Shown: positions 1,924 through 24,270 of the stretch, in pieces
Position numbering within the stretch: position 1 is the stretch's first letter
Layout: every line of letters begins with the position of its first letter
Assembly: GCA_028865345.1 (NCBI GenBank)
Contig: JAGWKL010000003.1
Location: 64,184-128,183 of the forward strand
Reading direction: 5' to 3'
Source: Candidatus Omnitrophota bacterium
GTDB lineage: Bacteria; Omnitrophota; Gorgyraeia; Zapsychrales; Fredricksoniimonadaceae
Length of the DNA: 64,000 bases
Position numbers and translations under genes: made by a program
The notes under the pieces: generated by a model
Databases searched by the model: none
Seen by the model: the letters and a program-made list of their open reading frames with translations, nothing else
What the model was told of the DNA's origin: nothing

Positions 1924-3734
1924 ACAAACGTTTTGGATGGCTTTTATTGGTCCTTTTGGCGCTGGGCGGTGTTTTTGTATGGTGCCGCTTATCCCTGCCC
2001 CGCTATCAATTCATCAACCTTTCCGTCGGCCAGTCAAAAGCCCGGGAGATATCCCGGAAATTCTTGGAGACCAAATACGGGGTCAATGTCAATGCCTACA
2101 CATCCGCCGTATTATTCAACGCGGATGATAATGCGGACCAGTATTTGCAAAGGACTCTGGGTTTTTCCGGCGAGAGGAGTCTTGTCCACCGCCTGCATTA
2201 CGACTTGTTCTGCTGGGTCATCCGTTATTTCAAAGAGAAGCAAAAAGAGGAGTATAAGGTCGCGGTCAGCAGCGCCACCGGTGAGGTCATCGGTTTTAAC
2301 CATACGATCGCAGATACGGCCGCCAGGCCGCTGGTCGATAAACAACAGGCCCGCCAGAGGGCTCTTCAATTCTTGAAGACCGCTTATGGTTTTAATCCCG
2401 CCGGGTATACAGTCCATAGTGAAGACGTTCATAAGCTGGAGAACAGGGTGGAGTATGCTTTTACTTGGGAAAACAAGGACGTGCATATTCCCTGGAGCAA
2501 GGACAAAGCCCAGGGTTACGCCAAACTCCTGACCAATGTCACGGTCTCGGGCAATGAAATTCTTGATTTTAATAAGGCTTTTTTTAAAATTCCTGACGGG
2601 TTTAACCGTTATGTAGACTACCTGAAACAAACCGGCCAAAATCTCACCCTGGTGTTCCGCATCCTTTATCTGGTGCTTCTGACCCTGGCCATTATGGCGG
2701 TTGTCAACCGCAAGCAGCAGGTGGTCACACGTACCGTGAGGTCGTTTTATGTCGGCGTGGGGATCGCCTTGTTTATTTTGATGGTCCTGGACCTTTTAAA
2801 CGATTATCAGAGCATTTTATACAGTTACCCGACCACCCAGTCCATGGGTGATTATGTGGCCCGTCAGTTTATCGAAGGCACCATAGCTCCCTTTTTCATC
2901 GCGCTGGGGTTTATTTTACCCGCCCTGGCAGGGGAGTCCCTGAATTTTGAGGTTGCCCGTGAGAAAAAAAATGGGGCTTTTTTGAGCACCCTTTTGTCTT
3001 CCTTTCGCTCGCTGAATATCGCCCGCCAGATCGCGGTGGGATATTGCGCGGCCGCGATCATTCTGGGGACCCAGTCATTGATTTACAGTTTAGGATTCAA
3101 ATATTGCGGGGTATGGGATGAGTTGTCCTGGATGACTCAGGCCTCGACAAGCATTGTACCCGCCTTGACCGCCTTGGCCATTGCTTTTCAGGCTTCTTTT
3201 ACAGAGGAGACAATGTTCCGCATGTTTGCCATCAATCTGTTCAGGAAATACCGCGTGCCTGTGGCCCTGGCGGTGTTTTTGAGCGCCGCGATATGGGGAT
3301 TCGGACATACGGGATATGAAATTTATCCCATGTGGTTTCGGGGTGTCGAAGTCACCACCATCGGGCTTATCATGGGGTTCTTTTATTTGCGGTTTGGCCT
3401 GGTATGCGTGATCACCGCCCATTTTCTGATCGACGGGTTTTTATCGGCCCTGCCGTTTTTGTTGAATCCTCACCTGTCCTTTAATTTTGCCACCGCTTTG
3501 ACGGTGGTGGGCCTGCCTTTGATATTGGCCCTGGTCGCAATTGTGTTCAACAGAAATACTCCTGAGAGGCCCTTGAGCATCCGTTTTAATGTCCACCAGC
3601 AATTTACCTACCATTTGCTGATGGAATTATGCCGTCACAAGGGCCCTGAAGAATTAACGGCCTTTAAAAATGACCTTCAGCGCCATGGGTGGGACGCTGC
3701 GATCATCCAGAGGGTCTTTGAGGATGATACGTAG
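1920..3734 (+). CDS. Membrane protein with CPBP (CAAX) intramembrane metalloprotease domain and N-terminal extracytoplasmic domain
   Basis: EETMFRMF (EExxxR), FGFGH, and AHFLIDGF motifs of the CPBP/Abi family. Multiple hydrophobic segments. ATGA overlap with the upstream gene. Confidence 0.8.
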   Translation: MNKRFGWLLLVLLALGGVFVWCRLSLPRYQFINLSVGQSKAREISRKFLETKYGVNVNAYTSAVLFNADDNADQYLQRTLGFSGERSLVHRLHYDLFCWVIRYFKEKQKEEYKVAVSSATGEVIGFNHTIADTAARPLVDKQQARQRALQFLKTAYGFNPAGYTVHSEDVHKLENRVEYAFTWENKDVHIPWSKDKAQGYAKLLTNVTVSGNEILDFNKAFFKIPDGFNRYVDYLKQTGQNLTLVFRILYLVLLTLAIMAVVNRKQQVVTRTVRSFYVGVGIALFILMVLDLLNDYQSILYSYPTTQSMGDYVARQFIEGTIAPFFIALGFILPALAGESLNFEVAREKKNGAFLSTLLSSFRSLNIARQIAVGYCAAAIILGTQSLIYSLGFKYCGVWDELSWMTQASTSIVPALTALAIAFQASFTEETMFRMFAINLFRKYRVPVALAVFLSAAIWGFGHTGYEIYPMWFRGVEVTTIGLIMGFFYLRFGLVCVITAHFLIDGFLSALPFLLNPHLSFNFATALTVVGLPLILALVAIVFNRNTPERPLSIRFNVHQQFTYHLLMELCRHKGPEELTAFKNDLQRHGWDAAIIQRVFEDDT

Positions 3735-3778
3735 TAATTCTTATTGACCGAATGCCGGGGTTGTTTTATATTTACGCT

Positions 3779-4162
3779 ATGAAGAAAATCTCCAGGATTT
3801 TTGTCGCTTTCTTGCTGGCCGTATCATTGGTTGTCTCAACGGTCATCTGCTGCTGCATTGCACCGGCGGTGGCAGCGCACTTTCAAAAGGAAGCCGCCTG
3901 CAGCCATTGTATGGGGCATAAAGCCTCCGGCCGGCCTTCAGATCCTCTATGCCCTCAGCAATTAATGAGCGCAGATTTTCTTCATGCGCCGGCGTTAACA
4001 TTTTCTGAAAGCACAGGCGGTTTTTCATTTACGCCGGTATTGTTTGTCGGTCATCATCCCGTTTTAACGCGTTTAATATTATCAGTCCATCCGCCCGGGG
4101 GGCCGCCCCTGGGCATGGATTTTATTCCGCTTTACCTTAGGACCTTCCAGTTACGCATTTAA
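3779..4162 (+). CDS. Hypothetical Cys/His-rich small protein with N-terminal hydrophobic segment
   Basis: ORF only; no RBS. CCCIAPAVAAHF..CSHCMGH cluster suggests possible metal binding. Start ambiguous (ATG 3752 or 3779). Confidence 0.3.
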   Translation: MKKISRIFVAFLLAVSLVVSTVICCCIAPAVAAHFQKEAACSHCMGHKASGRPSDPLCPQQLMSADFLHAPALTFSESTGGFSFTPVLFVGHHPVLTRLILSVHPPGGPPLGMDFIPLYLRTFQLRI

Positions 4163-4259
4163 TTCCCTTATCTCTTTCTTAAGTTGCCCTTGTCTCGCGC
4201 ATTATGCGGGAGGAGTCGTCCTTGATTTTGTCTGATTTCTGATAAAAAGGAGATATAGC

Positions 4260-4589
4260 ATGAACATCAAACCATTAGTTTTGATCTTAGGCGTTTTAAC
4301 CTTGTCAGGAGGGTTTGTTTTTGTCCAACAAAGCGCTGCCGCCGTCAAACCGAAAATTGTCGTCGTTGACAACACTGATCCAGCCAAGGCTGTGGAAGTA
4401 GGCAATAAAATTTGTCCCGTCGACGGCCTTAAGATCAGTGACGACGGGGCCATGGGCGGTGGGCCTGTCAAAATCGCTTATAAAGGCAGGATATATAACC
4501 TTGATTGTCCCATGTGCATTAAGGCTTTCGAAAACAACCCCGAAAAGTACAGCGCCATTGCCGAGAAGGAAGTTGGTGCGGGCAAGTAG
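4260..4589 (+). CDS. Secreted YHS-domain (TRASH-like) putative metal-binding protein
   Basis: Strong RBS AAAGGAGAT. Signal peptide. CPVDG...YNLDCPMCIKAFENNPEKY matches the YHS pattern (CPVCGM..Y.FCS..C...F..nPekY). Confidence 0.8.
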   Translation: MNIKPLVLILGVLTLSGGFVFVQQSAAAVKPKIVVVDNTDPAKAVEVGNKICPVDGLKISDDGAMGGGPVKIAYKGRIYNLDCPMCIKAFENNPEKYSAIAEKEVGAGK

Positions 4590-4618
4590 CTGCAGGGAGA
4601 GCCGGCGGATAATTCATT

Positions 4619-5167
4619 ATGCAAGAACCTGAAAAACAAGACGCTTCAATGCTTTTGGAGCAGGCCCGTCAACTGGACGAAGCGGCTCTCGGTCAACTGG
4701 TCAGGGAATATTATCCGGCTGTGCTTCGGTTTTTGTCTTACCGTACGCGTAATCAGGAAGACGCCGAAGATCTGACCAGCGAGGTGTTTATACGGATGAC
4801 AGGGGCCATTAAAACCCAGACCGGGAATTTTGCCGCGTGGCTGTTTAAGATCGCGCGCAACCTGCTCATCGATTATTACCGTAAGATGGATCGCCGGAAA
4901 ACTTCATCGCTGGATGAGATGGAGGATGACAGCATCGCTGTGACCTCCCGCGACCATAGAGAAGGTTTTTCTGAAGATGAGATCAAAGGGATGTTGGCCG
5001 TTTTGACGGATGAACAGCAGGAAGCGGTCACCTTAAGGTTCCTGAATGGTTATTCTTTAGAGGAAACCGCCGGGATCATGCAAAAGTCTGTGGGGGCGGT
5101 CAAGCTGCTCCAGTTCCGCGCCATAGCCGCGTTAAAGGAGCATTTGAAAATAGACATCCAGGCTTGA
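4619..5167 (+). CDS. ECF-type RNA polymerase sigma-70 factor
   Basis: Sigma-70 region 2 (LVREYYPAVLRFLSYRTRNQEDAEDLTSEVF) and region 4 HTH (LEETAGIMQKSVGAVKLLQFRA). Confidence 0.85.
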   Translation: MQEPEKQDASMLLEQARQLDEAALGQLVREYYPAVLRFLSYRTRNQEDAEDLTSEVFIRMTGAIKTQTGNFAAWLFKIARNLLIDYYRKMDRRKTSSLDEMEDDSIAVTSRDHREGFSEDEIKGMLAVLTDEQQEAVTLRFLNGYSLEETAGIMQKSVGAVKLLQFRAIAALKEHLKIDIQA

Positions 5168-5261
5168 AAAAGCGCTTGCGTAACTTTTTGTTGTTGGCGG
5201 CGTCTTTATCAGTGAACATTTTGATCCCAATGGGGGGGTCAATAAAAAAAGCGAGGACGCT

Positions 5262-5534
5262 ATGAAAAAACAAATCACATTTTTATTAATCGGTTTAGGG
5301 TTGGTGGCTTTCAGCAGCTTGAGTTTTGCCGAGAGCCAACTCGGTAAAGGGATTAGGACTGTGGAGGGAACGATCGTGTCCGTGAATACTTCCAAGGATG
5401 TGGCTGTGATAAAGGATAATGCTGTTGCGCATTATTATACAGTTCGTGTTTTTCCGGATCAGATTGGTTCTATACAGGCCGGAGAAAACGTCACGGCTGT
5501 TTCTTATGGGAATGGACCATTGACCCTTAAATAA
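5262..5534 (+). CDS. Small secreted protein, possibly CusF-like OB-fold without canonical Met ligands
   Basis: Signal peptide. Beta-rich EGTIVSVNTSKDVAVIKDN...IGSIQAGENVTAVSY pattern. RBS GAGGA. Followed by a terminator. Confidence 0.5.
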   Translation: MKKQITFLLIGLGLVAFSSLSFAESQLGKGIRTVEGTIVSVNTSKDVAVIKDNAVAHYYTVRVFPDQIGSIQAGENVTAVSYGNGPLTLK

Positions 5535-5552
5535 CAGCAAACATTTAAATAT

Positions 5553-5590
5553 AAAAAGGGGGACATGCTATAATATGTCCTCCTTTTTAG
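5553..5590 (+). terminator. Rho-independent terminator after the sigma/small-protein unit
   Basis: AAGGGGGACAT-gctataat-ATGTCCTCCTTTTT inverted repeat followed by a T-run. Confidence 0.6.
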
Positions 5591-5654
5591 CGTAACTTTC
5601 TGAGATTTTAAACGCCTGCATCGTCAGTAGGAATAATGGTATGGGAATTTTAAT

Positions 5655-6920
5655 ATGCGTATTTTAGTTTCAATGCTGGTGTTGGTGTTTGTGTCCCAGG
5701 GCCTGACGTTTGCGCAAGATGCCAGGTCTCCCGTACATTTAAGCGGATTGATCAAGGAGGCTTTAAACAACAATCCGCAGATTTTAGCCGCTAAAGCGCG
5801 CTACGAAGCGGCCCGCGCCCGTGTAGCCTTTTTCCGTAATGTTCCGGATCCCATGGTCGAGTACGGCTATGACAAGATCATTCCCTCAATGATAGGCGCA
5901 GACGCAGCCAAGCCCATGAAGACTCTTTCGGTAACTCAACGAATCCCTTTTCCGACAAAACTTTTTTTGGAAAGGAAGGCGGCCAGGCAGGAAATGGATG
6001 CTCAAAAGCAGGATTATGAGGAAACCCGGCAACGTGTCATTGAACAGGTCAAGGACGCCTATGCTTCTTTGTTTGTCGCCCAACGTAAAATAGCATTCAC
6101 AAAAGACGATTTTGAACTGGCCGGACAGATGGCTAAGGCTGCAGAGGTACGGTATTCGGCCAATCGGGATTCTCAAATTGACCTTTTACGGGCCCAAGCA
6201 GAGCAGGAAAAGATCATGGTACAGCAAAAAGAATTTGAGCAGGACCGTGTCATTGCCGTCAGTTTGCTGGCCTCTTTGCTTAACAAGGCCCCGCAGGATT
6301 TAGGAGATATTGATACGCATGAGAATGCAAAGGGAGAAGACCTTTCTGAAGAAAATGTGATTAAGAGGATCAAACAGGACCGTCCGGAATTGAAGTCTTT
6401 TAGGGCCATACTGGATCAAACCAGGACGAAATACTCCTTAAGTAAACAAAGCTTGTTACCGGACATAACGCTTACCTATCAGCACCAAGAGCAAAACGGC
6501 AGCTTCGGAAGAGGGCAATGGGCGGGTATGGTAGGTTTTACGATTCCACTTTGGTTTTGGGGCAAACAGGCGCCCGAGATCGTGGAAGCCCGCGCCGACC
6601 TTCGCGCCGCCCAGGCCGATTACCAGGCCGAGGAGAATACAGCCATTTTCGAAGGCAGGAGCGCTTTAGCAAAAGTTAAGGCGGCTCGTGAAGTGGTGGA
6701 ACTTTATGAGAAAGGGATTTTGCCGAGGGCCGAATCGGTGGTTGTCACGGACCGTGTGGCTTATGAGGCCTCAACAGGTGATTTTACCGAATATATAGCG
6801 GCTTTTAAGGCCCTTCGGGATTTTCAAATGGAATATGCGCAAGCCCTGGCTGGTTTGGCCGTTGCCAAGGCGGATTTGGACCGGGCCATAGGCGGGGATA
6901 TTGTATCTAAGGGGGAATGA
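5655..6920 (+). CDS. Outer-membrane efflux protein, TolC/CusC/CzcC family
   Basis: Signal peptide. Coiled-coil and beta-barrel OEP repeats (LIKEALNNNPQILAAKARYEAARARV). First gene of a cusCBA-like operon. Confidence 0.85.
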   Translation: MRILVSMLVLVFVSQGLTFAQDARSPVHLSGLIKEALNNNPQILAAKARYEAARARVAFFRNVPDPMVEYGYDKIIPSMIGADAAKPMKTLSVTQRIPFPTKLFLERKAARQEMDAQKQDYEETRQRVIEQVKDAYASLFVAQRKIAFTKDDFELAGQMAKAAEVRYSANRDSQIDLLRAQAEQEKIMVQQKEFEQDRVIAVSLLASLLNKAPQDLGDIDTHENAKGEDLSEENVIKRIKQDRPELKSFRAILDQTRTKYSLSKQSLLPDITLTYQHQEQNGSFGRGQWAGMVGFTIPLWFWGKQAPEIVEARADLRAAQADYQAEENTAIFEGRSALAKVKAAREVVELYEKGILPRAESVVVTDRVAYEASTGDFTEYIAAFKALRDFQMEYAQALAGLAVAKADLDRAIGGDIVSKGE

Positions 6921-6921
6921 A

Positions 6922-7926
6922 ATGAAAAAGTTCACATGGGTCATGATTTTCTTATTGATAGCTTGCGCCGCGGGAAGTCAAAATGCGTTCAGCCAGACTA
7001 AGAGAAAGATCCTTTATTATCGAAATCCGATGGATCCTTCGGTGACATCGCCTGTTTTTATGAAGGATTCGATGGGAATGGACTATATTCCCGTTTACGC
7101 CAAAGAACCTTCACAAGCTCAAAAGGTATCAGGTATTCATGTGCCCCTGCAACAGCAACAGCTTATCGGTCTTAAGACAGGGCTTGTCGAGAAGCGCGAT
7201 TTGATTTATGAGATCCGCGCATCGGCCCAAGTAGCCTTTGATCCTGACCTGTTTGTCGCCCAAACGAGTTATATCGAGGCGTTAAAAACATTAAAAGAAA
7301 CTGCGAACGGTTCGGATGCTTTTCTCAATGGACAATCTAAATCCCTTTTGGAAGCCAGCCGCCGCAATCTTTATCTTGAGGGCATGAGCGACAGCGAGAT
7401 CGATGAGCTGGCAAAAACGGGCAAAGCGGATGATAGTTTGTATTATCCCGGCACTTTGCCTACGGCATGGGTCTACGCCGCCATTTACGAGAACGAGGCC
7501 TTGATGACCAAGCCTGGCCAGAAGGTCACCTTTGAACCTCTGGCTTTTCCCGGAAAAATGTTCCATGGGATTGTGGCCGGAGTTTCTCCCATCTTGGATG
7601 CCCGGACGCGTACCGTGCGTTTGAGGATCAGGGTCGATGACCCCAAGAAAGAATTGCGTCCTCAAATGTTCGGAACGGCGTTGATTTCCGTTGATCTGGG
7701 AAAGAAACTGGCTGTTGACCAGGACGCTGTTTTGAACACGGGAATGAAGCAAATTGTTTACGTGGTCCATAAAGGGAATATTTTTGAAATGCGAAAGGTG
7801 ACCTTGGGCACAGAAGCCAAAGGTTATTATGAAGTTCTGTCAGGTCTTCAAGAAGGTCAGAAGGTCGTCACCAGTGGTAATTTCATGATTGACTCAGAAA
7901 GCAGGATTGAAGGGTTTACCAAATGA
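6922..7926 (+). CDS. cusB: RND efflux periplasmic adaptor, CusB/CzcB-like
   Basis: N-terminal YYRNPMDPSVTSPVFMKDSMGMDYIPVY metal-binding motif typical of CusB/SilB, then HlyD-family domains. RBS AAGGGGGAA. Confidence 0.85.
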   Translation: MKKFTWVMIFLLIACAAGSQNAFSQTKRKILYYRNPMDPSVTSPVFMKDSMGMDYIPVYAKEPSQAQKVSGIHVPLQQQQLIGLKTGLVEKRDLIYEIRASAQVAFDPDLFVAQTSYIEALKTLKETANGSDAFLNGQSKSLLEASRRNLYLEGMSDSEIDELAKTGKADDSLYYPGTLPTAWVYAAIYENEALMTKPGQKVTFEPLAFPGKMFHGIVAGVSPILDARTRTVRLRIRVDDPKKELRPQMFGTALISVDLGKKLAVDQDAVLNTGMKQIVYVVHKGNIFEMRKVTLGTEAKGYYEVLSGLQEGQKVVTSGNFMIDSESRIEGFTK

Positions 7927-10900
7927 TTAAAAAAGTCATCGAGTTTTCGGCAAATAATAAATTCTTGATTTTGATCATCATAGCGGCGGCCATAGTGGGG
8001 GCCATTATGGCTGTACGCAACATCCCTCTTGATGCCATTCCGGACCTTTCAGATACCCAGGTCATCGTTTATTCCCGCTGGAACCAGTCACCGGACATCA
8101 TGGAAGACCAGGTGACCTATCCCATCGTGACCGCGATGTTGGGCGCCCCTGATGTCAAAGCCATCAGGGGCTTTTCAGATTACGGTTATTCCTACGTCTA
8201 TATTATTTTTAAAGACGGGACAAACTTGTATTGGGCGCGCAGCCGCACATTGGAATATCTCAGCAAGGTCCTTCCCGCCCTGCCCAAAGGCGTTAAGACC
8301 GAATTAGGCCCGGATGCAACGTCCGTCGGGTGGGTCTATCAATATGCTCTGGTGGATAAAAGCGGCAAAAATGACCTTTCCCAATTGCGGTCTTTCCAGG
8401 ACTGGTATCTGCGTTATTGGCTGCAGTCTGTTCCGGGAGTCGCGGAAGTGGCATCAGTCGGGGGATTTCAAAAACAGTATCAGGTCAACGTCGATCCCGT
8501 GGCCCTGCAGGCGTATAACATCCCTATCACTAAGGTCATTGAGGCGGTACGTCGCAGTAATAATGATGTGGGGGCGAGGGTGGTGGATTTTTCCGGCACC
8601 GAATTCATGGTCCGCGGACGCGGGTATATCAAATCCACCAAGGACATAGAGAACATTGTTTTACGGACGGATTCTCACGGCAGGCCGGTTTTGGTGCGTG
8701 ATGTGGCAACAGTGACAACGGGCCCACAGATGCGCAGGGGTGTGACTGATCTGAATGGACAAGGGGACACAGTGGGCGGCATCGTGATCATGCGTTCGGG
8801 AGAAAATGCTCTAAATGTCATCAACCGGGTCAAACAGAAGCTCAAAGACATTCAGCCCTCGCTTCCGCCGGGCGTTAAGATCGTGACAACCTATGACCGC
8901 TCAGACCTTATCATGCGTGCGATCGATACGCTCAAACATCAGCTTATTGAGGAAATGATCATTGTCAGCTTGGTGATCATTTTTTTTCTGTGGCATTTCC
9001 CGTCAGCCAGTGTGCCGATTGCCACCATCCCTGTGGCAGTGCTTTTGTCCTTTATACCGATGTATGCCATGAAATTGACGTCCAATATCATGTCGCTAGC
9101 CGGTATCGCGATTTCCATCGGTGTTTTGGTGGACGGCGCCATCATCATGGTGGAGAACGCTTACAAAAAGACCCAATTGTGGGAAGCTTCGGGGCGCAAG
9201 GAGAATTACCATGACGTTTTGTTGACGGCTCTTAAAGAAGTGGGGCCGTCGATTTTCTTTTCTCTTCTTGTGATCGCGGTGTCATTTTTGCCGGTCTTCA
9301 TGCTGGTCGGTCAGTCAGGCAGGCTTTTCAGGCCCCTGGCCTTCAGCAATAACTTTACGATGGTCATTGCCGCGGTTTTGTCGGTCACCTTTGTTCCGGC
9401 TATGTTTGTGCTTTTGGTGCGGGTCAACGAGGCTCATTTCCGTCCGAAATGGCTGTCGAAACTTTATAATTTTTTACGCGTAGGCCATTATTATCCGGAG
9501 GAAAAACATCCGGTCAGCAAGGTCCTGTTTAATTTTTATGAACCTGTCTGCCGGTTCGTGCTCAAATACCGTGTCCAGACTTTGATTTTTGCCGGAATGA
9601 TCTTCTTGTCTATGATACCGGTTTATTTAAAGTTGGGATCGGAGTTTATGCCGCCTTTGAATGAGGGGACCATTCTTTATATGCCCACCACCTTGCCCGG
9701 GATATCAGTGACAGAAGCCCAAAAAGTTCTTCAGGAAACGGACAAGATCATCCGTACTGTGCCTGAGGTCCAAAGCGTGTTCGGCAAGGCCGGGCGGGCC
9801 GATACATCGACCGATCCGGCACCCTTATCAATGATGGAGACAACCATCGTCCTTAAACCGGAATCGCAATGGCGCAAGGTCCATCGCTGGTATTCGTCGT
9901 GGATGCCCGGATTCCTTCAAGGGTTTTTCCGTCCCATTTGGAATGACCGGATCACATGGCAGGACATCATCAATGAGCTTGATGAGAAAGTCAGACTACC
10001 GGGGTTGTCGAACGCATGGACCATGCCTATCAAAACACGTATTGACATGCTTTCAACCGGTATCAGGACTCCGGTGGGGATAAAAATTTTAGGCCCGGAT
10101 TTAAATGAGATAGAACGCATAGGTGTCAAGATCGAGAACATCGTCAAGCATATCAAAGGCGCCAGAAGCGTTTACGCGGAGCGCGTAACAGGCGGATATT
10201 ATCTGGATTATGATTTTAACTCTAGTGCTTTGGCCAGTTACGGATTGACGATCGGCGATGTGGAGGATGTGATTGCGTCGGCCATCGGCGGCGAAACAGT
10301 GACCACGACCGTTGAAGGCCTGGAAAGGTATTCCGTCAATGTCAGGTATTTGCGTCAGCTGCGTGATGATATCCCAAGCCTGGAGCGCATCCTGGTGTCC
10401 ACGCCCAATGGGGCGCAGGTACCGTTGGGACAACTGGCAAAGTTGAAATTTGTCCAGGGACCGGGCATGGTTCGCAATGAAAACGGCATGCCTGCCGGTT
10501 ATGTCTATGTGGACATGGCCGGCCGTGATATCGGCGGTTTTGTGCGGGACGCCAAACAGGCGGTTGATAAGGGGCTTAAACTGCCTTCAGGGTATACACT
10601 CATCTGGAGCGGGCAGTATGAGAACATGATCCGGGTCGCCCAGCGGATGAAGGTGATCATTCCCATCGCGCTTTTTATTATTTTTATGCTGTTGTACATG
10701 AATACCCGTTCGCACGTCAAAGCGGGAATAGTCCTGTTGGCGGTGCCTTTTTCTTTGGTGGGAGCCGTATGGTTTCTTTATTTTCTCCACTATAATTTAT
10801 CTGTCGCGGTGTGGGTGGGGATGATTGCCCTCATGGGGCTTGATGCGGAAACCGGTGTTTTTATGCTGCTTTTTCTGGATTTAGCTTATTATCAGGCCAT

Positions 10901-11216
10901 ACGTCTTGGCAAAATGAAAACGAACGCTCAGCTTCAGGAGGCCATTGTACAGGGAGCGGTCAAGCGCATTCGTCCCAAGCTTATGACGGTCAGCGCCATG
11001 TTTATGGGGCTTGTTCCCATTATGTGGTCCATAGGGGCAGGATCTGATGTGATGAAACGTATTGCGGCTCCCATGATCGGAGGTATCTTCAGCAGCTTCA
11101 TTATGGAGCTTTTAATCTATCCGGTCATTTACTATCTTTGGAAATGGAATTACGAGATGAAAAAGGGCTCCGTGGACGTCAGCAAGCTGCCCCTACCAGA
11201 GCTAAAGGGGCATTAA
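7923..11216 (+). CDS. cusA: Heavy-metal efflux RND permease, CusA/CzcA (HME-RND) family
   Basis: 1097 aa with 12-TM RND architecture. N-terminus MIKKVIEFSANNKFLILIIIAAAIVGAIMAVRNIPLDAIPDLSDTQVIVYS is typical of CusA. ATGA overlap with cusB. Confidence 0.9.
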   Translation: MIKKVIEFSANNKFLILIIIAAAIVGAIMAVRNIPLDAIPDLSDTQVIVYSRWNQSPDIMEDQVTYPIVTAMLGAPDVKAIRGFSDYGYSYVYIIFKDGTNLYWARSRTLEYLSKVLPALPKGVKTELGPDATSVGWVYQYALVDKSGKNDLSQLRSFQDWYLRYWLQSVPGVAEVASVGGFQKQYQVNVDPVALQAYNIPITKVIEAVRRSNNDVGARVVDFSGTEFMVRGRGYIKSTKDIENIVLRTDSHGRPVLVRDVATVTTGPQMRRGVTDLNGQGDTVGGIVIMRSGENALNVINRVKQKLKDIQPSLPPGVKIVTTYDRSDLIMRAIDTLKHQLIEEMIIVSLVIIFFLWHFPSASVPIATIPVAVLLSFIPMYAMKLTSNIMSLAGIAISIGVLVDGAIIMVENAYKKTQLWEASGRKENYHDVLLTALKEVGPSIFFSLLVIAVSFLPVFMLVGQSGRLFRPLAFSNNFTMVIAAVLSVTFVPAMFVLLVRVNEAHFRPKWLSKLYNFLRVGHYYPEEKHPVSKVLFNFYEPVCRFVLKYRVQTLIFAGMIFLSMIPVYLKLGSEFMPPLNEGTILYMPTTLPGISVTEAQKVLQETDKIIRTVPEVQSVFGKAGRADTSTDPAPLSMMETTIVLKPESQWRKVHRWYSSWMPGFLQGFFRPIWNDRITWQDIINELDEKVRLPGLSNAWTMPIKTRIDMLSTGIRTPVGIKILGPDLNEIERIGVKIENIVKHIKGARSVYAERVTGGYYLDYDFNSSALASYGLTIGDVEDVIASAIGGETVTTTVEGLERYSVNVRYLRQLRDDIPSLERILVSTPNGAQVPLGQLAKLKFVQGPGMVRNENGMPAGYVYVDMAGRDIGGFVRDAKQAVDKGLKLPSGYTLIWSGQYENMIRVAQRMKVIIPIALFIIFMLLYMNTRSHVKAGIVLLAVPFSLVGAVWFLYFLHYNLSVAVWVGMIALMGLDAETGVFMLLFLDLAYYQAIRLGKMKTNAQLQEAIVQGAVKRIRPKLMTVSAMFMGLVPIMWSIGAGSDVMKRIAAPMIGGIFSSFIMELLIYPVIYYLWKWNYEMKKGSVDVSKLPLPELKGH

Positions 11217-11285
11217 ATCGGCATAACTTTTGGCGGGATAGATCGTCTATAATTATGAGAGGCAGTACTTACAAAGGTTTATTTT

Positions 11286-12092
11286 ATGGATAAGAGACCG
11301 ATAGAAGATATATTCAATGAGTGCTATGAGAAGATGCTTGCCGGCATGCCTGCAGAAGAGATCATTCGGCAGTATCCTAATCATGCCAAGGAGTTAAAAG
11401 AACTCCTTGGTGTCGCCCAAAGTGTGAGCCACACGCCGCCCGTAAGGGTTTCAGATCAGAAACTGTTTTCCTGTCTGATCAAGGTAGGGGAAGAGATCCA
11501 AAGGCAAAAGGAGAGGTCTCTTTCGTCGAAGCTCAATCGGTTGTTTGTCTTTGCCTCACCGGCCTGGGCGCGCGGGTTTGCCCTGACCCTTGTCATTGTT
11601 TTTGCTGCCTGGGGCACGGTGAATGCGTCTGCCAACAGCCTGCCAGGCAGCCCTTTATATCTGGTAAAGCTCTTGGGTGAGAAGGCAAGTTATTTTCTGA
11701 CCGTCAATCCCCAGGGTCAACTGGAGTTAAAGATCACTTTTTCCGAAAGACGTTCAAAAGAACTGGTCAAAGAGTTCAATAAAACCGGCCATGTTGATAT
11801 CCAGACCCTTAAAAGGATGCTGAATGAAGCAGGGGATTCATTAAATGAGGTGGCTAAGCTGCCTGTTAAAGGACAAAAAATTTATCTTGTCCAACTTAAA
11901 TATTTGAATGACTATCAGAAAGATGTTCTTCAAGACCTTCAAAGCAGGGCGCCCCAAGTTCAGAAAGCCAAATTGGAACAGGCCATTACCATTTGCAATC
12001 AGCGTTGCCGATGGCTGCAAATGGCATGCGACCGGGGCTGTGTAACTTCCATGCGCGGTTGTCCGTGCCCCCTTCCATCAAAAAATATTTGA
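11286..12092 (+). CDS. Membrane protein with anti-sigma-factor-like topology and C-terminal Cys cluster
   Basis: Cytoplasmic helical N-domain, single TM (LFVFASPAWARGFALTLVIVFAAWG), periplasmic helical domain. C-terminal cluster ends CNQRCRWLQMACDRGCVTSMRGCPCP. Confidence 0.6.
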   Translation: MDKRPIEDIFNECYEKMLAGMPAEEIIRQYPNHAKELKELLGVAQSVSHTPPVRVSDQKLFSCLIKVGEEIQRQKERSLSSKLNRLFVFASPAWARGFALTLVIVFAAWGTVNASANSLPGSPLYLVKLLGEKASYFLTVNPQGQLELKITFSERRSKELVKEFNKTGHVDIQTLKRMLNEAGDSLNEVAKLPVKGQKIYLVQLKYLNDYQKDVLQDLQSRAPQVQKAKLEQAITICNQRCRWLQMACDRGCVTSMRGCPCPLPSKNI

Positions 12093-12176
12093 TAAAAATC
12101 AGGCCAAATACGCTAAAATAGCGGAAAACGAAGCGGCGGTGAAGCAATCGCCGTTAAATAATTTAAGGAGGACTCT

Positions 12177-12566
12177 ATGAAGAAATTGATCGCGTTGGCA
12201 GCGGTATTGGTCTTAAGCTCAGCAGTGGTTTTTGCTCAAGATACTTCATCGAATAAGAATGTAAATGGCACGACCGACAAGCCAAGTATGATGGACCAAG
12301 GCGGCATGATGGGCCAGGGCATGATGGGACCAGGCATGATGCATAAGGGCATGATGATGCACGGCATGATGATGAGAATGATGAACGCTTCCATGGTCGC
12401 CACCTCCGATGGAGGGGTAGTTGTTTTTACCGGTGACAGGCTCATCAAATATGACAAGGACTTAAATGTCGTCAAGGAAGTCAAGATAAAGGGGTATATG
12501 CCGGCCTGGGAGAAAACATGCCCCATTATGAATCCTGGCATGATGAAGGCTGAAGGAAAATCCTAG
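12177..12566 (+). CDS. Secreted methionine-rich putative Cu(I)/Ag(I)-binding protein
   Basis: Strong RBS AGGAGG. Signal peptide. MMDQGGMMGQGMMGPGMMHKGMMMHGMMMRMM Met motifs like those of CusF/PcoC/CopA periplasmic Cu-binding proteins. Stop abuts the ATPase ATG. Confidence 0.8.
   Translation: MKKLIALAAVLVLSSAVVFAQDTSSNKNVNGTTDKPSMMDQGGMMGQGMMGPGMMHKGMMMHGMMMRMMNASMVATSDGGVVVFTGDRLIKYDKDLNVVKEVKIKGYMPAWEKTCPIMNPGMMKAEGKS
12289..12384 (+). repeat. Coding microsatellite of (GGC/CAG)-ATG-ATG units encoding the Met-rich motifs
   Basis: ggcatgatg / ggcatgatgatg units iterate about 9 times in frame. Confidence 0.7.
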
Positions 12567-14792
12567 ATGCCCAAAGACCCCATATGCGGCATGGATGTGG
12601 ATGAAAGCTCGCCTTTGAAACTTGAGAAAGACGGGCAGGTGTATTATTTTTGTTCAGGCCATTGTAAGGAAAAATTCTTAAAAGAAGCACAATCCCATCC
12701 TAAGCCCCAAGCTTCTGCCTTACCATTGAAGGGCAGGACCTTGTACACCTGCCCCATGCATCCTGAAATTGAACAGGGTCATCCTGGCGACTGCCCTAAA
12801 TGCGGCATGGCGCTCGAGCCCAAAAGTCCGTTGGTGGAGCAGGAGCAGCCGGCGGAATCACACGAGATCAACTTTTTAAGGAAGAAATTCTGGATAGGGG
12901 TATGGTTGACCCTGCCTGTTGTTTTTCTGTCTTTAACGGCCAAGGCTATGCCTGATGCCGTCCGTTACCTCCAATGGGCCCTGGCTTCCATCGTGGTTTT
13001 TTATTGCGGCGGATTCTTGTTGGCCAAAGGATGGCAATCTATCGTCCACCGGCATTTGAACATGTTCACCCTTATAGGCCTGGGTGTCATCGTTGCTTAT
13101 AGCTACAGCACCGTGGTATTATTTTTGTCCCCCCCATCATATCTTTATTTTGAATCAGCTTGCGCCATTACGGTCCTGGTCATTTTAGGCCAATGGCTTG
13201 AGGCGCGGGCCCGTGGACAAACCGGCCAGGCCATTCAAAGCCTTTTAGGCCTTGCCGCTAAAGAAGCCCACCTGATCAAAGACGGCAGGGAAGAACAAGT
13301 CCCGGTTGATCAGGTCCAAAAAGGGGATCTTTTGCGGGTCAAGCCGGGGGAGAAGATCCCTTTGGACGGGATCATTGTGGAAGGCCGAAGCAGCATCGAT
13401 GAATCCATGATCTCCGGTGAGCCCATGCCCGTCGAGAAAAACACCGGAGACCGCGTCATCGGGGCAACGGTCAACCAGACCGGTAGCTTTGTCATGAGAA
13501 CGGAGAAAATCGGATCGGAAACCCTGCTTTCCCAGATCGTTCATATGGTCTCCGAAGCCCAGCGCAGCCGCGCGCCCATCCAGGGCCTGGCAGACCGGGT
13601 GGCCGGTTATTTTGTGCCTGCCGTCATTATCATTGCCGTCATTACTTTTTTCGTCTGGCTTTTCGTCGGGCCGCAGCCTGCTTTGACCTATGCGTTGGTT
13701 AACTCTATTGCGGTCGTGATCATTGCCTGTCCGTGTGCCCTGGGATTGGCAACACCGATGTCGATCATGGTGGGTGTGGGCCGGGGCGCACAGGCAGGCA
13801 TTTTAATCAAGAATGCCCAAGCCATTGAAAGGGCAGAAACAGTGACCCATGTTCTGGTGGATAAAACCGGGACCCTGACTGAAGGCAGGCCTAAAGTAAC
13901 AGCTTTGATCGGTCCGCAACCTCTGGAGGCGCTTGGTCTCGCGGCGTCAATGGAGCAAAACAGCGAGCATCCTTTGGCCGGCGCCGTCATGAATTATGCC
14001 AAAGAAAAAGGGGTCAAGATCGAAGCTGTACGGCACTTTGAATCCATAACCGGCGCGGGCGTCAGAGGGCAGGTCAATGGAAAGACCGTTCTCATCGGCA
14101 AACAGAAGTTCATCGAGGAATCAGGTGCCGTTATCCCGGAAGATTTGAAAAAAGAAGCTTCGCAAATGCAGGACAATGCGCAGACGGTTGTATGGGTGGC
14201 TACTGAAGGCAAGGCCTTGGGGATTTTTGGGATTTCTGACCCTATCAAGAAAACAACGGCGGATGCCATTCGCGCCCTGCATGGTATGGGATTGAAAATT
14301 ATCATGCTTACCGGCGATAACCGCAAAACAGCGGAGGTTGTAGCTAAACAACTGGGCATCGATCAGGTGGAGGCGGAATTAAACCCCCAAGGCAAACAAA
14401 ATATCGTCAGGACCTTCAGGGACCAGGGAGCCATCGTCATGATGGCAGGGGACGGCATCAATGACGCTCCGGCCCTGGCCCAGGCGCACGTGGGGGTTGC
14501 CATGGGAACAGGGACGGATGTTGCGATTGAATGTGCCGGCATGACCCTGGTCAAAGGCGATTTAAACGGCATCGTTAAAGTTTTAGGCTTAAGCCGTGCC
14601 GTCATGCATAATATCCGCCAGAATCTTTTCTTCGCGTTCATCTATAACGCTTTGGGTATCCCCATCGCCGCCGGTGTTCTTTATCCGTTTTTCGGGTTAT
14701 TGCTCAATCCCATTATCGCGGGCGCGGCCATGAGTTTCAGCTCGGTGTCCGTGATAACCAACGCCTTGCGTTTACGTCGTTTTCGGCTTTAG
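12567..14792 (+). CDS. copA: Cu+/Ag+-type P1B heavy-metal translocating ATPase with N-terminal YHS and CPMHPE/CPKCGM motifs
   Basis: CPC transmembrane motif ([13 protein letters not shown]). DKTGTLT phosphorylation site. GDGINDAP motif. N-terminal DPICGMDVD...[12 protein letters not shown] (YHS) and [22 protein letters not shown]. Confidence 0.9.
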
Positions 14793-14831
14793 GTTTTTAA
14801 AAGGAGAAATCATTAAGGAGGCTCAAAGGAA

Positions 14832-16013
14832 ATGACTTTTAAGAAAAGTATCGCCCGGCTGGCTTTCCAGTTTGTTTTTCTTATAGGGATAGTCAATTTT
14901 TTTGCCGACTTCACTTATGAAGGGGCCAGGAGCATCAACGGCGCTTTCTTATCCAGCTTGGGAGCCAGCGCCGTTGCCGTCGGGTTTATAGCAGGTTTTG
15001 GCGAGTTGATAGGGTACGGTTTGCGCTCACTGACAGGATTTTGGGCCGGCAAAACCCATCAGTATTGGATTTTTGCCATCATTGGCTATGCCATCAACAT
15101 GTTTGCCGTGCCTGCGATGGCCTTGGCAGGCAACTGGCCGATGGCCGCCTGCCTCATCATCGCCGAGCGTACCGGCAGGGCCGTCAGGAAACCTTCCGTC
15201 GAGACAATGCTTTCCTTTGCAGGCAAAGAATTGGGCAGCGGCTGGGTCTTCGGGCTCAATGAATTTATGGACCAATTCGGCGCCACCATAGGCCCTTTGA
15301 TCGTGGCATGGGTGCTGCTTACCAAACACAGTTACAAATATGGCTATGGCGTTCTTTTGATATCAGCGCTTTTATGTCTGGCCATGATCTTCACATCCAG
15401 GCTGTTTTTCCCCAAACCGCAGGAGCTGGATAAAAAAGAGCCGGTGATTTTAGAGCCCAAGGGTTTTACCAGGGCCTATTGGCTTTATGTGCTGGGCGGG
15501 GCCTTGATCGCTGCGGGGTTCGCGGATTTCGCGCTGATGGCGTTTCATTTTGACAGGACACATGCTGTTCCCATGCCATGGATCCCGATTTTTTACGCCA
15601 TAGCCATGGCCACCGGTGGGATCAGCGCTCTTATTATGGGCAGGTTGTTGGACAAATGGGGTCCCAAGATCATGATGCTTGCTTTTTTAGTGGGGGCCCT
15701 GTTTGCGCCGTTCGTTTTTTGGGGGAACTTTTCTTTAATACTCGCCGGGATGATCTTCTGGGGCGTCGGCTTGGGCGCCCAGGAATCCCTTCTTAAAGCA
15801 ACGCTGTCACATATGACTTCCCGGGACAAAAGAAGTGCCGCCTTCGGTGTTTTTGATACGGCTTTCGGCATTGCCTGGTTTTTGGGAAGCGCTGCGATGG
15901 GCATCCTGTATGCCTGGTCGCTCGTGGCCATGATCATTTTTTCCGTGGCCCTGCAGATGGCCGCCTTGCCTGTATTTATGATGGCCTTCAATAAGCAAAA
16001 GACGCACTCCTAA
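14832..16013 (+). CDS. MFS transporter
   Basis: About 12 predicted TM segments. GRLLDKWGPK-type MFS loop motif. RBS AAGGAGG. Confidence 0.8.
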   Translation: MTFKKSIARLAFQFVFLIGIVNFFADFTYEGARSINGAFLSSLGASAVAVGFIAGFGELIGYGLRSLTGFWAGKTHQYWIFAIIGYAINMFAVPAMALAGNWPMAACLIIAERTGRAVRKPSVETMLSFAGKELGSGWVFGLNEFMDQFGATIGPLIVAWVLLTKHSYKYGYGVLLISALLCLAMIFTSRLFFPKPQELDKKEPVILEPKGFTRAYWLYVLGGALIAAGFADFALMAFHFDRTHAVPMPWIPIFYAIAMATGGISALIMGRLLDKWGPKIMMLAFLVGALFAPFVFWGNFSLILAGMIFWGVGLGAQESLLKATLSHMTSRDKRSAAFGVFDTAFGIAWFLGSAAMGILYAWSLVAMIIFSVALQMAALPVFMMAFNKQKTHS

Positions 16014-16123
16014 AAGCGGTGCCTGTCCCCGGATTCGGGGGCCGCGCTGGTACTTGAATTCATAAATAAATAAGTTAAAATGATTTTTGTTGAAACAGGA
16101 ACAGGATAAGAAAGGATGGGATC

Positions 16124-16486
16124 ATGAGAAGAATAGCGTTGATAGGACTTACAGTAATTGCTTTAGTATTTTTAAACGGCTCTGTGCTGGTTTGGGCCCA
16201 ACAGACGGCCAAGGTCACCGGTGAAGTGGTGGACACCTATTGCTTTGTGACCATGGGCGCCAGGGGCGAAGGCCACCGTCAATGCGGCCTGGGATGCGCC
16301 CACAAAGGGATTCCCGTCGGTATTGTGGAAAACGGTACCAATAAGCTCTATGTTTTATTGCCGAACAAAAACGACACTTCTCTGTCCAAAGATGTCATCA
16401 ACAAAATGGGCCGGACAGCCACCGTGACAGGCAAGGTATATGCCAACGGCGGCAGCCAATTCCTGACAGTGGAGTCTGTCAGTTGA
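16124..16486 (+). CDS. Secreted Cys/His-containing small protein (possible metal site: C40,H51,C54,C58,H60)
   Basis: Signal peptide. YCFVTMGARGEGHRQCGLGCAH cluster. RBS AAAGGATGGG. Confidence 0.6.
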   Translation: MRRIALIGLTVIALVFLNGSVLVWAQQTAKVTGEVVDTYCFVTMGARGEGHRQCGLGCAHKGIPVGIVENGTNKLYVLLPNKNDTSLSKDVINKMGRTATVTGKVYANGGSQFLTVESVS

Positions 16487-16974
16487 TGAACTTATTGGCC
16501 AAGCTGCTGCCAGGTGCGGGGAACCTTCAAAACCTGCATCCTTTGGCAGTGCATTTCCCCATTGCCTTTTTGACAGCAGCGGGGTTTATCTATGTCTTGG
16601 CTTACGTGTTGCGCCGTGACGCGTGGGCCAGGACAGCTTTCTGGTTTTTAGGGCTTGGCTGCCTCACCGCCGCCGTCGCCGTCATGACGGGGCTTTATGC
16701 GGCCGGCGGCGTCATGGTGGCAAAATCCGTCCGGCAGCATTTGCTCCATGCCCACAAGTTGTGGATGCTGGCGACTTTTTATTTGAGTGCTATCTTGACA
16801 TTATGGGCGGCTTTCACAAATGGTTTTCCCAAAAAAGGCCGCCTGATTTTTGTGGTTTTATCTCTCATCCTTATCGCCGTCATGGTCAAGGGGGCTGATT
16901 ACGGCGGGCGGATGGTTTTTGATTATAATGCCGGAGGGGATGCTTGCGGCCAGCCGATAGAATTCAGCCACTGA
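16486..16974 (+). CDS. DUF2231-like integral membrane protein
   Basis: HPLAVHFPIA signature. 4-5 TM segments. Start overlaps upstream stop (TGATG). Confidence 0.7.
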   Translation: MNLLAKLLPGAGNLQNLHPLAVHFPIAFLTAAGFIYVLAYVLRRDAWARTAFWFLGLGCLTAAVAVMTGLYAAGGVMVAKSVRQHLLHAHKLWMLATFYLSAILTLWAAFTNGFPKKGRLIFVVLSLILIAVMVKGADYGGRMVFDYNAGGDACGQPIEFSH

Positions 16975-16976
16975 TA

Positions 16977-17480
16977 ATGATATTGACCCTGTTCTTTGTT
17001 CCTTATGCCTATGCGACGACGGCACAGGACTATCTGCAGGACGGCAACGATGCTTACAGGCGGGGACAGTATGACCATGCCATTTATGCCTATACCAAGG
17101 CCCTTGACATCGATCCCAACCTTGACAAGGCCTATGACAATCGCGGCGCGGCCTACGCCCAGGAAGGCAGTTTACCGAGAGCCATCGATGATTTCACCAT
17201 GGCCATTGCCGCCAACCCCAAGGATGAGCAGGCGTACAGCAACCGGGGCCATGCCTATGACCAGAAAGGCGATCTGCTTCAGGCTGTCGCTGATTATAGC
17301 CGGGTCATTGCGATTGATCCCCTCGATGTCAGGGGCTATAAGGCCCGCGGGTTCATTTATTATGAATTGAAACAATATGACAAGGCCTGGGACGACGTTT
17401 TTAAAGTCGAGGGGTTGGGAGGACATGTGGATGGTGATTTTTACCGTAAGCTTAAGTTGGCATCCGATCAAGGAAAGTAG
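16977..17480 (+). CDS. TPR-repeat protein with N-terminal signal-like segment
   Basis: Three to four 34-aa TPR units (AYDNRGAAYAQEG.., AYSNRGHAYDQKG.., GYKARGFIYYELK..). Confidence 0.75.
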   Translation: MILTLFFVPYAYATTAQDYLQDGNDAYRRGQYDHAIYAYTKALDIDPNLDKAYDNRGAAYAQEGSLPRAIDDFTMAIAANPKDEQAYSNRGHAYDQKGDLLQAVADYSRVIAIDPLDVRGYKARGFIYYELKQYDKAWDDVFKVEGLGGHVDGDFYRKLKLASDQGK

Positions 17481-17485
17481 ATTTT

Positions 17486-17827
17486 ATGGACCTAAAGCTT
17501 AAGACCATCATGACATTTGTTGTCCCCGCATTATTGTTTGTGATGATTTCGATGCCTTTGATCATCAGGAAGGTCCCTCGCAATTTTGGATACGGGTTCA
17601 GGACTAAAAAGACCCTCTCCAGCGACGAGATGTGGTATAAGGCCAACCGGTTCGGAGGCGCCGCGGTTTTGACAGCGGCTTTGCTGACTTTGACAGGCTG
17701 CCTTTGGCTTTTTTACCATAGGAATAATTTCTCCGCGGACGCCATTAACAGTTTTGGCTTCGGATTATTTATAACTCCGGTCCTTGCCGCTGTTGCGGTA
17801 TCTCTTATCTACATAAAAAGTCTATAG
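17486..17827 (+). CDS. SdpI/YhfL-family membrane protein
   Basis: PRNFGYGFRTKKTLSSDEMWYKANRFGG motif typical of the SdpI family. Three TM segments. Confidence 0.7.
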   Translation: MDLKLKTIMTFVVPALLFVMISMPLIIRKVPRNFGYGFRTKKTLSSDEMWYKANRFGGAAVLTAALLTLTGCLWLFYHRNNFSADAINSFGFGLFITPVLAAVAVSLIYIKSL

Positions 17828-24012: not shown

Positions 24013-24270
24013 GACGGTTATTCAGATTTGTCATCAGCCCTGCAGATGAAATTGTTATGGAAAATCAAATGCCCGGCCCAATCAACTCGTCTTATGCGCA
24101 GCGTGTCCTTATAAAGGTCCCGGAGAGGTCTAAGATACTAGGAAAAGCTTCTGGACAGCCTTAAAAAAGTCTGGTATAAAAGACTCTCGCTTTCATGACT
24201 TGAGGCGTTCAGCTGCCGGCCGTCTGGTGATGGCAGGCTTTGATTGAGGCCGCAAGACAATCGAATAATT

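Follow-up and report, generated by a model that had tools for sequence, protein, structure and literature searches.

Gene content and metal specificity

The DNA analysed here is a stretch of 64,000 nt (hereafter the window) from a contig of a Candidatus Omnitrophota bacterium metagenome-assembled genome (MAG). At positions 3752-17827 it carries the cluster under study, 15 consecutive open reading frames (ORFs), all on the + strand, in which genes for a CusCBA-type efflux pump and a CopA-type ATPase stand together with genes for a sigma factor of the extracytoplasmic function (ECF) type and for a membrane protein of the Pfam family DUF5667 (Table 1). Judging from the comparisons presented below, we think it likely that the cluster forms a regulon for Cu(I)/Ag(I) efflux under ECF sigma control, in which the DUF5667 protein serves as anti-sigma switch and in which feedback is only negative. 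An earlier note on this DNA had listed the same genes as a copper/silver-type resistance island, and its gene order holds, every ORF being present on the + strand at the proposed coordinates. Window proteins were assigned to families by Pfam and NCBIfam scans, and the cluster was compared with homologous loci in other genomes, which are designated by L-numbers (L001, L003 and so on).

The assignment of the cluster to Cu(I)/Ag(I) is supported by motifs that define the corresponding transporters. The RND pump scores 1072 bits with TIGR00914 (cut-off 701), and its best solved relative is E. coli CusA (1001 bits, compared with 474 for the divalent-cation pump ZneA). The methionine triad of CusA (M573, M623 and M672) is kept in full in the alignment, and transmembrane (TM) helix 4 reads GIAISIGVLVDGAIIMVEN, where that of CusA reads GIAIAVGAMVDAAIVMIEN, without the Asp of the CzcA-type DFG motif. 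These features place the pump with CusA, in the monovalent Cu/Ag type of HME-RND pumps. The best solved relative of the adaptor is E. coli CusB, whose three N-terminal Met of the Cu/Ag site are likewise kept (NPM...SMGMD versus DPM...FMDMD in CusB); its score with the subfamily model NF007303 is just 115 bits versus 390, and the protein is a divergent CusB-like adaptor. Finally, the ATPase scores 627 bits with TIGR01511 (cut-off 397), and the CPC, YN, MSFSS and VDKTGT motifs of P1B-1 (CopA-type) ATPases can be read in its translation. The Cu/Ag character that had been attributed to the cluster is thus borne out by the Met triad of the pump, the Met site of the adaptor and the CPC/YN/MxxSS motifs of the ATPase.

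Table 1. Genes and regulatory features of the cluster, in window coordinates.
Feature	Position	Strand	Basis or remark
C136, small membrane-anchored Cys/His-rich protein	3752-4162	+	no Pfam/NCBIfam family
Secreted YHS-domain protein	4260-4589	+	Pfam YHS 26 bits, below the cut-off of 30.3
ECF sigma factor, BldN-like, 182 aa	4619-5167	+	Sigma70_r2, Sigma70_r4, Sigma70_ECF
ECF-type promoter P1	5179-5208	+	position weight matrix from relatives only
S90, secreted 90-aa OB-fold protein	5262-5534	+	AlphaFold2 and Foldseek
Intrinsic-terminator-like hairpin	5552-5589	+	folding energy
ECF-type promoter P2	5591-5620	+	position weight matrix
Outer-membrane factor, CusC-like	5655-6920	+	Pfam OEP 162 bits
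CusB-like periplasmic adaptor	6901-7926	+	HlyD_D23; probable start ATG 6922
CusA-type HME-RND pump	7923-11216	+	TIGR00914
ECF-type promoter P3	11222-11251	+	position weight matrix
DUF5667 single-pass membrane protein, 268 aa	11286-12092	+	Pfam DUF5667
Met-rich secreted protein	12177-12566	+	no Pfam family
CopA-type P1B-1 ATPase with N-terminal YHS and HMBD	12567-14792	+	TIGR01511; Pfam YHS, HMBD, E1-E2_ATPase
MFS transporter	14832-16013	+	Pfam MFS_1
Secreted 120-aa Cys/His protein, overlapping DUF2231 gene	16124-16486	+	
DUF2231 membrane protein	16483-16974	+	Pfam DUF2231 70 bits
TPR protein	16944-17480	+	Pfam TPR
SdpI-like protein	17486-17827	+	Pfam SdpI

The sigma factor, the DUF5667 protein and ECF-type promoters

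The sigma factor has the domains of an ECF (group 4) sigma factor, without extensions, and scores 65.5 bits with Sigma70_r2, 41 with Sigma70_r4, 42 with Sigma70_ECF and 95 with TIGR02937 (versus 42.9). Its best NCBIfam match is the BldN family and its closest solved relative is sigma-BldN (6dxo_A, E = 1.6e-24, 90 bits); CnrH is matched weakly (4cxf_A, 26 bits, E = 5.8e-5). Membership of the BldN family itself (TIGR02952/ECF121) was rejected, the score of 134 bits being below the cut-off of 206 and the N-terminal extension being absent, and the protein is a relative of BldN outside the family proper. Orthologues are 72-76% identical in L003, L004, L005 and L007 and 51-58% identical in L001 and L006. 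Neither a second sigma gene nor a DUF5667 paralogue was found within the 64-kb window.

The protein encoded downstream of the pump genes matches DUF5667 (PF18915) with 32.4 bits (cut-off 27). It comprises a helical N-terminal domain on the cytoplasmic side, a TM helix at about residues 92-113 that is preceded by basic residues and, on the periplasmic side, a helical DUF5667 domain followed by a tail rich in Cys, a topology consistent with that of a single-pass membrane anti-sigma factor (N-in/C-out). An invariant juxtamembrane motif, SAxSLPGDPLYxVK, is common to DUF5667 proteins across phyla. The initial homologue search returned 22 close matches, all DUF5667, and an exhaustive profile search (E up to 1e-3) recovered 8133 cluster representatives at 50% identity. 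Classification as a class I anti-sigma factor (ASDI/ZAS) was rejected, DUF5667 being the only domain that Pfam finds in the window protein and in all its homologues.

What ties the DUF5667 protein to the sigma factor is gene neighbourhood. A scan with the DUF5667 alignment, reduced to one genome per species, gave 76 loci, mostly from Chloroflexota, with Omnitrophota, Calditrichaceae, Bacteroidetes, Stahlbacteria, Saccharibacteria and others also covered. An ECF sigma ORF ends at most 150 nt upstream of the DUF5667 gene, on the same strand, in 63 of these 76 species-representative loci, and the rest are mostly contig ends or Omnitrophota variants. In L001, L002 and L006, where the DUF5667 protein is 39-44% identical to that of the window, its gene follows the ECF sigma gene after 5 nt or overlaps it. 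Moreover, the identities of the two proteins to their window counterparts drop in step (sigma/DUF5667: 74/65% in L003, 72/58% in L005, 58/42-44% in L006 and 51/38-39% in L001). Because of this adjacency to orthologous sigma genes in relatives, the DUF5667 protein is very probably the cognate anti-sigma factor of the window sigma, and the two would be expected to bind each other physically.

Four longer members of the family (P0223, P0226, P0245 and P0264; 424-774 aa) carry N-terminal extensions of about 180 aa that are weakly T2SSF-like. The query profile matches them over several stretches, and they are not sigma fusions; they may represent duplicated cytoplasmic helical modules.

A pattern (G/A)TAACTTT...CGTC was noticed by eye in three intergenic regions of the window; it matches just those three places in the window (0.17 expected) and is also found at equivalent positions in relatives. 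To avoid circularity, a position weight matrix (PWM) was trained without the window sites, on 13 sites taken from relatives only, which gave the consensus cGTAACTTTT-N12-CGTCTTTA. Applied to both strands of the 64-kb window, this PWM finds exactly three sites, at 5179, 5591 and 11222, all of them on the + strand, in intergenic DNA and 35-54 nt before a start codon, and the next-best site scores below 12 bits. At 17 bits or more, three sites compare with 0.04 expected and with a maximum of 1 in 200 dinucleotide shuffles. P1 (CGTAACTTTT-N12-CGTCTTTA, 31.6-31.9 bits) is the best promoter match in the window and lies 54 nt upstream of the S90 start. P2 (CGTAACTTTC-N12-CGCCTGCA, 17.1 bits for the core and 25.3 for the full site) precedes cusC by 35 nt, and P3 (CATAACTTTT-N12-CGTCTATA, 23.9 bits core and 29.8 full) precedes the anti-sigma gene by the same distance. 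At the position of P3, the motif is present also in L003, L005, L007, L008 and L012. Among the loci outside the training set, L008, L011, L012, L013, L015 and the Stahlbacteria locus L020 have the motif at equivalent positions, in L020 upstream of OEP-MFP-RND genes.

In loci where the two regulatory genes are adjacent, the motif precedes the sigma gene, as expected for what would be classic ECF autoregulation, and also the gene after the anti-sigma gene. Upstream of the sigma, YHS and C136 genes of the window (3400-4620), no ECF-type promoter was found down to 8 bits, and the sigma gene is therefore predicted not to be autoregulated from a nearby ECF promoter. A sigma70-like sequence, TTGACC-17-TATATT, is located at 3744-3772 and ends 7 nt before the ATG at 3779, with no Shine-Dalgarno sequence. 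This arrangement suggests a leaderless transcript, which could also feed the YHS and sigma genes. By eye, a sigma70-like TTGATG-17-TATTAT was also seen upstream of the YHS-sigma genes in L003, L004 and L007. The terminator that had been placed before cusC was recovered as a 16-bp hairpin at 5552-5589 (folding energy dG -21 kcal/mol, z -5.4), flanked on either side by A and U tracts, which separates S90 from the cusC promoter.

A proposed regulatory circuit and its alternatives

The earlier note had remarked that the sigma and anti-sigma-like genes are separated by the whole of cusCBA, and this separation is both real and unusual when set against the 63 of 76 loci with adjacent genes. Full separation, with the sigma gene upstream and about 5.9 kb between the two, was found only in the Omnitrophota-type contigs L003/L009, L004 and L007/L010, which share with the window the order (YHS-DUF2231)-sigma-(S90)-cusCBA-ASF, where ASF denotes the predicted anti-sigma gene. 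The presence of cusCBA between the sigma and DUF5667 genes was seen in one Omnitrophota clade only, comprising the window and at least four other assemblies. In L008, cusA stands directly upstream of the anti-sigma gene and the contig ends before the position of the sigma gene. Three further loci have intermediate layouts: L005 (YHS-DUF2231-sigma-ASF-C134-S96-cusCBA-...-MET-copA), L011 (sigma-S90-ASF-C136-cusCBA-YHS-MET-copA) and L012 (YHS-DUF2231-sigma-S90-...-ASF-cusCBA-...-MET-copA). The split layout is derived and is conserved within its clade.

We propose that the sigma factor and the secreted YHS protein are made together from a promoter not recognised by this sigma, and that the cytoplasmic N-terminal domain of the DUF5667 protein would keep the sigma inactive at the inner membrane. 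A periplasmic signal, most likely Cu(I)/Ag(I) bound to the Cys-rich tail, would then inactivate the anti-sigma factor, possibly with subsequent proteolysis. The freed sigma would transcribe three units from cGTAACTTTT-N12-CGTCTTTA promoters, namely (i) S90, ending at the terminator, (ii) cusCBA and (iii) the anti-sigma gene, probably with read-through into the genes for the Met-rich protein and copA. We infer from the arrangement of genes and sites that it is this sigma that uses the three ECF-type promoters and that copA is co-transcribed with the anti-sigma gene. Since the anti-sigma gene would be sigma-dependent and the sigma gene would not, the circuit would provide negative feedback without positive autoregulation.

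In this circuit the metal is the presumed signal and the tail of the DUF5667 protein the candidate sensor. The window protein has 6 Cys in its last 45 aa, and all nine RND-linked anti-sigmas, including a Stahlbacteria one with only 28% identity, have 4-6 Cys there, typically as CxC...CxC. Unlinked homologues (n = 61) have 0-2 Cys in the C-terminal 45 aa, with a mean of 0.31. The Cys cluster to which the earlier note had drawn attention in the anti-sigma-like protein therefore tracks linkage to RND genes, although only two C-terminal Cys are conserved family-wide. Direct sensing of Cu/Ag by the Cys tail is accordingly offered here as a tentative idea. With similar reserve one could imagine a wider scenario, in which DUF5667 would be a large family of anti-sigma factors whose partners are BldN-like ECF sigmas, with a GTAACTTTT-N12-CGTC promoter in common. 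An Omnitrophota/Stahlbacteria subclade would have gained a Cu(I)/Ag(I)-sensing CxC...CxC tail controlling cusCBA/copA, and relocation of the anti-sigma gene would have left negative feedback only.

Several observations weigh against the regulon proposed here. The -10 element of P2, upstream of cusC, is weaker and degenerate (CGCC); the orthologous position in L003, L004 and L007 has the canonical CGTC. No ECF motif was found upstream of the Met-rich and copA genes, whose dependence on the sigma would require read-through. As regards the tail, C237 and C261 are the only tail Cys conserved across the alignment of the family (A1), the correlation with RND genes stems from about two lineages that are independent of each other, a clade of Omnitrophota and a single genome of Stahlbacteria, and the periplasmic Cys may simply form disulfides. 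As regards the anti-sigma function, Pfam detects no known anti-sigma domain and no ASD family in the DUF5667 protein, HxxxCxxC is absent and the only invariant cytoplasmic Cys are C13 and C63. A profile search of the PDB with alignment A1 returned only spurious matches to HCV polymerase, and no RsbN, at E up to 10. The AlphaFold2 (AF2) model, built from 17 sequences, has three N-terminal helices (6-18, 23-28 and 31-48) and a mean pLDDT, the confidence score of the model, of 61, with residues 50-152 below 50; a Foldseek search of the PDB with this poor model gave generic helical matches only (best E 0.04) and is uninformative on the fold.

Some of these points would fit a generic envelope-stress module whose anti-sigma factor does not sense metal, the cus/cop genes having been recruited to it or being controlled by distal CusRS, CueR or CsoR. 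The family is large, with its 8133 cluster representatives, about 60 of its 76 loci have no metal genes nearby, the tail Cys are conserved only in part and the -10 element of the window cusC is weak. However, the Cys-rich tail is specific to the RND-linked members, in two phyla, and the ECF sites in the clusters all lie in front of the regulators or of a gene for a metal-related or small secreted protein. Furthermore, no other regulator gene was found within the cluster by Pfam scan. We therefore regard the envelope-stress explanation as rather unlikely.

It is considerably less probable still that the DUF5667 protein is a co-regulated metal-handling membrane or periplasmic protein and not an anti-sigma factor, with the sigma controlled in another way, for instance through its own transcription. 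Public annotation would leave room for such a protein: the 380 family matches obtained with a diverse 30-sequence profile are all named 'hypothetical' or 'DUF5667', none anti-sigma, and a literature search found no paper naming DUF5667. No sigma-DUF5667 fusion was found among the longer family members either. Yet the DUF5667 gene tightly adjoins, and often overlaps, that of an orthologous ECF sigma in many phyla, including lineages free of metal genes, and the protein has the topology typical of a single-pass anti-sigma factor, and the sigma itself has no regulatory extension. Although the window comes from a MAG contig, the split layout is no assembly or binning artefact, an explanation that is effectively refuted by the same sigma-cusCBA-DUF5667 order in independent assemblies from different projects (GCA_015233675, GCA_015233335, ERZ27248668 (ENA) and JAHFGE01), whose genes encode 62-69% identical proteins and are not copies.

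Cu/Ag efflux is usually described under the control of two-component systems (CusRS, SilRS, CopRS) or of the cytoplasmic regulators CueR, CsoR and CopY. The window cluster resembles the cusRS-cusCFBA and sil loci of Enterobacteria in the CusA Met triad, the CusB Met site, the OEP component and a small periplasmic OB-fold protein, and it resembles sil also in having a CopA-type ATPase in the same locus, as SilP. In contrast to these loci, it has no two-component regulator, control being apparently exerted by the ECF sigma and anti-sigma, its OB-fold protein lacks the His/Met/Trp site of CusF, and C136, DUF2231, the Met-rich protein and the secreted YHS protein come in addition as conserved partners. 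In Myxococcus xanthus, CorE and CorE2 are ECF sigmas that respond to Cu or Cd/Zn and carry a C-terminal Cys-rich domain. Here, too, an ECF sigma would stand over copper-efflux genes and a CxC-containing Cys-rich element is the proposed metal sensor. In CorE, however, this domain is part of the cytoplasmic sigma and there is no anti-sigma, whereas the window sigma (182 aa) has no extension and the Cys-rich element is found at the extracytoplasmic end of a separate membrane protein.

The cnrYXH-cnrCBA system of Cupriavidus metallidurans (CnrH sigma, CnrY anti-sigma, CnrX periplasmic sensor) belongs to ECF291, a group with metal-pump context (PMC7826278). The window shares with it an ECF sigma and a membrane anti-sigma next to an HME-RND operon, sigma-dependent promoters before the pump genes (predicted ones in the window) and a small periplasmic protein encoded in the regulatory module. 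The two differ as follows. CnrH is only a distant relative of the window sigma (26 bits with 4cxf_A, compared with 90 with BldN), the predicted anti-sigma of the window is a 268-aa DUF5667 protein whereas CnrY is short, S90 differs from CnrX in lacking conserved metal ligands, Cu(I)/Ag(I) takes the place of Ni/Co as cargo, and the anti-sigma gene of the window lies downstream of the pump genes. Regulation of the CnrYXH type (ECF291) was rejected on the weak CnrH match, the lack of any family match for S90 and an anti-sigma that matches DUF5667 only.

The BldN-RsbN pair of Streptomyces (ECF121) contains the closest solved sigma. RsbN is a non-classical single-pass anti-sigma, as is predicted for the DUF5667 protein, and rsbN is a direct target of BldN from its own promoter (PMC6101532), as is predicted for the anti-sigma gene of the window. 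The window sigma differs in lacking the N-terminal pro-sequence and in its score (134 versus 206 bits), no sequence similarity to RsbN was detected, and the predicted regulon consists of metal efflux genes, whereas that of BldN consists of chaplins and rodlins.

ECF control of metal efflux is thus already known; the anti-sigma family, on the other hand, is unannotated, and we found no database or paper that calls DUF5667 an anti-sigma. If sensing by the Cys tail proves true, metal sensing through ECF sigmas would have a third route, distinct in mechanism from those of CnrYXH and CorE. Confirmation of the sigma/anti-sigma switch would assign a function to DUF5667 across many phyla and would provide a natural example of how relocation of an anti-sigma gene changes ECF feedback structure. 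Moreover, it would establish a new periplasmic metal-sensing module which, being small and orthogonal and having a known promoter, would be an attractive biosensor part. A bacterium of a candidate phylum appears to use an ECF sigma/anti-sigma switch with a clearly defined, conserved promoter.

Cluster membership, borders and neighbouring genes

The earlier note had suggested looking for co-localisation of these genes in related genomes, and homologues do recur together: the same gene families co-occur in at least six other genomes, and they therefore cluster more than by chance. Comparison of these loci points to a conserved core made up of C136, the YHS protein, the sigma, S90, cusCBA, the anti-sigma, the Met-rich protein and copA, to which DUF2231 is often added. 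The members that had been singled out as foreign to described cus, cop or sil loci recur as neighbours in relatives. They are the secreted YHS protein, the Cys/His protein, DUF2231 and the Cys-rich DUF5667 protein, and we found no literature record of any of them.

C136, with ATG 3779 as its probable start, has an N-terminal TM segment that bears a CCC motif, PLYL..F.LRI is conserved in its C-terminal part, and homologues lie inside the same clusters in L011 (6555-6962, 93 bits), L007 (2296-2679) and L005 (10738-11142). The place of the secreted YHS protein just upstream of the sigma gene is conserved, whether or not DUF2231 lies between them; the protein is 55-74% identical to the proteins at the same position in L003, L004, L005 and L007, and the orthologues carry the YHS call. 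Homologues of the Met-rich protein are encoded directly upstream of the ATPase gene in L005, L011 and L012. The DUF2231 protein of the window is 29-32% identical to the one encoded between YHS and sigma in L004, L005 and L007. Since DUF2231 recurs next to YHS and sigma in relatives, the pair formed by the 120-aa Cys/His protein and DUF2231 is a possible member of the cluster; a literature search on DUF2231 found nothing relevant. When Pfam scans were relaxed to E up to 5, nothing meaningful emerged for C136, S90, the 120-aa protein (S120) or the Met-rich protein.

The description of the 90-aa protein as OB-like is supported by its AF2 model, a five-stranded barrel with pLDDT of about 90 for residues 31-90, and by Foldseek, whose top matches are OB folds with weak E values throughout (1.5e-3 to about 1e-2), among them CusF (1zeq, E 2.4e-3, TM-score 0.5) and SilF. 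In spite of this fold, a role as CusF/SilF-type metallochaperone was rejected, the metal ligands being absent: no Met, His, Trp or Cys is conserved in the family, and mature S90 contains no Met, Trp or Cys at all. Homologues of S90 are encoded between or beside the sigma and anti-sigma genes in L005, L011 and L012, and between them in L011 and L012. This position, together with the best promoter match of the window, leads us to speculate that S90 may be an accessory of the signalling module. A different secreted protein of about 100 aa, unrelated to S90, is encoded after the anti-sigma gene in a non-metal clade (L001 10864-11163, L006 10864-11166 and the equivalents in L013/L015); it has a His/Tyr/Gly/Arg-rich tail (...GGHHPHSYGRERYGYRHGCGDWYR), and its gene has a perfect ECF promoter upstream.

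The right-hand part of the proposed island is less well supported. The MFS, TPR and SdpI genes are contiguous with the others in the window, and no homologue of theirs was found in any of the related clusters mapped, so their membership is not supported. In L008, the closest relative contig, copA is followed directly by a homologue of window 19456-23031, which provides a synteny anchor on the right, and the stretch from MFS to GT4 is therefore variable. The anchor gene (+) encodes a 1191-aa secreted protein with a weak C-terminal caspase-like match (Peptidase_C14, E 2.7e-4), and its L008 homologue (6511-10425) has 1304 aa. A mobile genomic island was rejected: there is no integrase or tRNA at the borders, the only tRNA being at 24270, and no GC shift (47-52% inside the cluster, 50-53% in the flanks).

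The flanking genes encode MtaB, a GIY-YIG protein, a CPBP protease and a GT4 glycosyltransferase, and the genomic context of the cluster differs between relatives. In L003 (nDJH13bin20), arsenic-type genes precede the cluster (1053-2902; DUF134, SBF/ACR3-like and LMWPc/ArsC-like), which suggests that the module travels within broader metal/metalloid resistance neighbourhoods. In L008 (2575-4168), an ECF promoter after the anti-sigma gene is followed, before copA, by an accessory set unlike that of the window. It comprises an ICMT/PEMT-like membrane methyltransferase, a membrane peptide of 80 aa rich in Cys, His and Gly, and a SAM-methyltransferase-like protein, family labels that come from reading the sequence together with the Pfam tags of L005.

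Two minor features of the window may be added. Inside the DUF2231 ORF, at 16593-16635 (+), lies a 20-bp hairpin (dG -30.9 kcal/mol, z -5.6) of which the window holds no other copy. On the left flank, the GIY-YIG ORF at 1627-1923 (+; 61 bits) shares about 90 nt with the start, as annotated, of the 632-aa CPBP/Rce1-like membrane protease at 1836-3734 (+), which probably starts later, at MNKRFGWLL.

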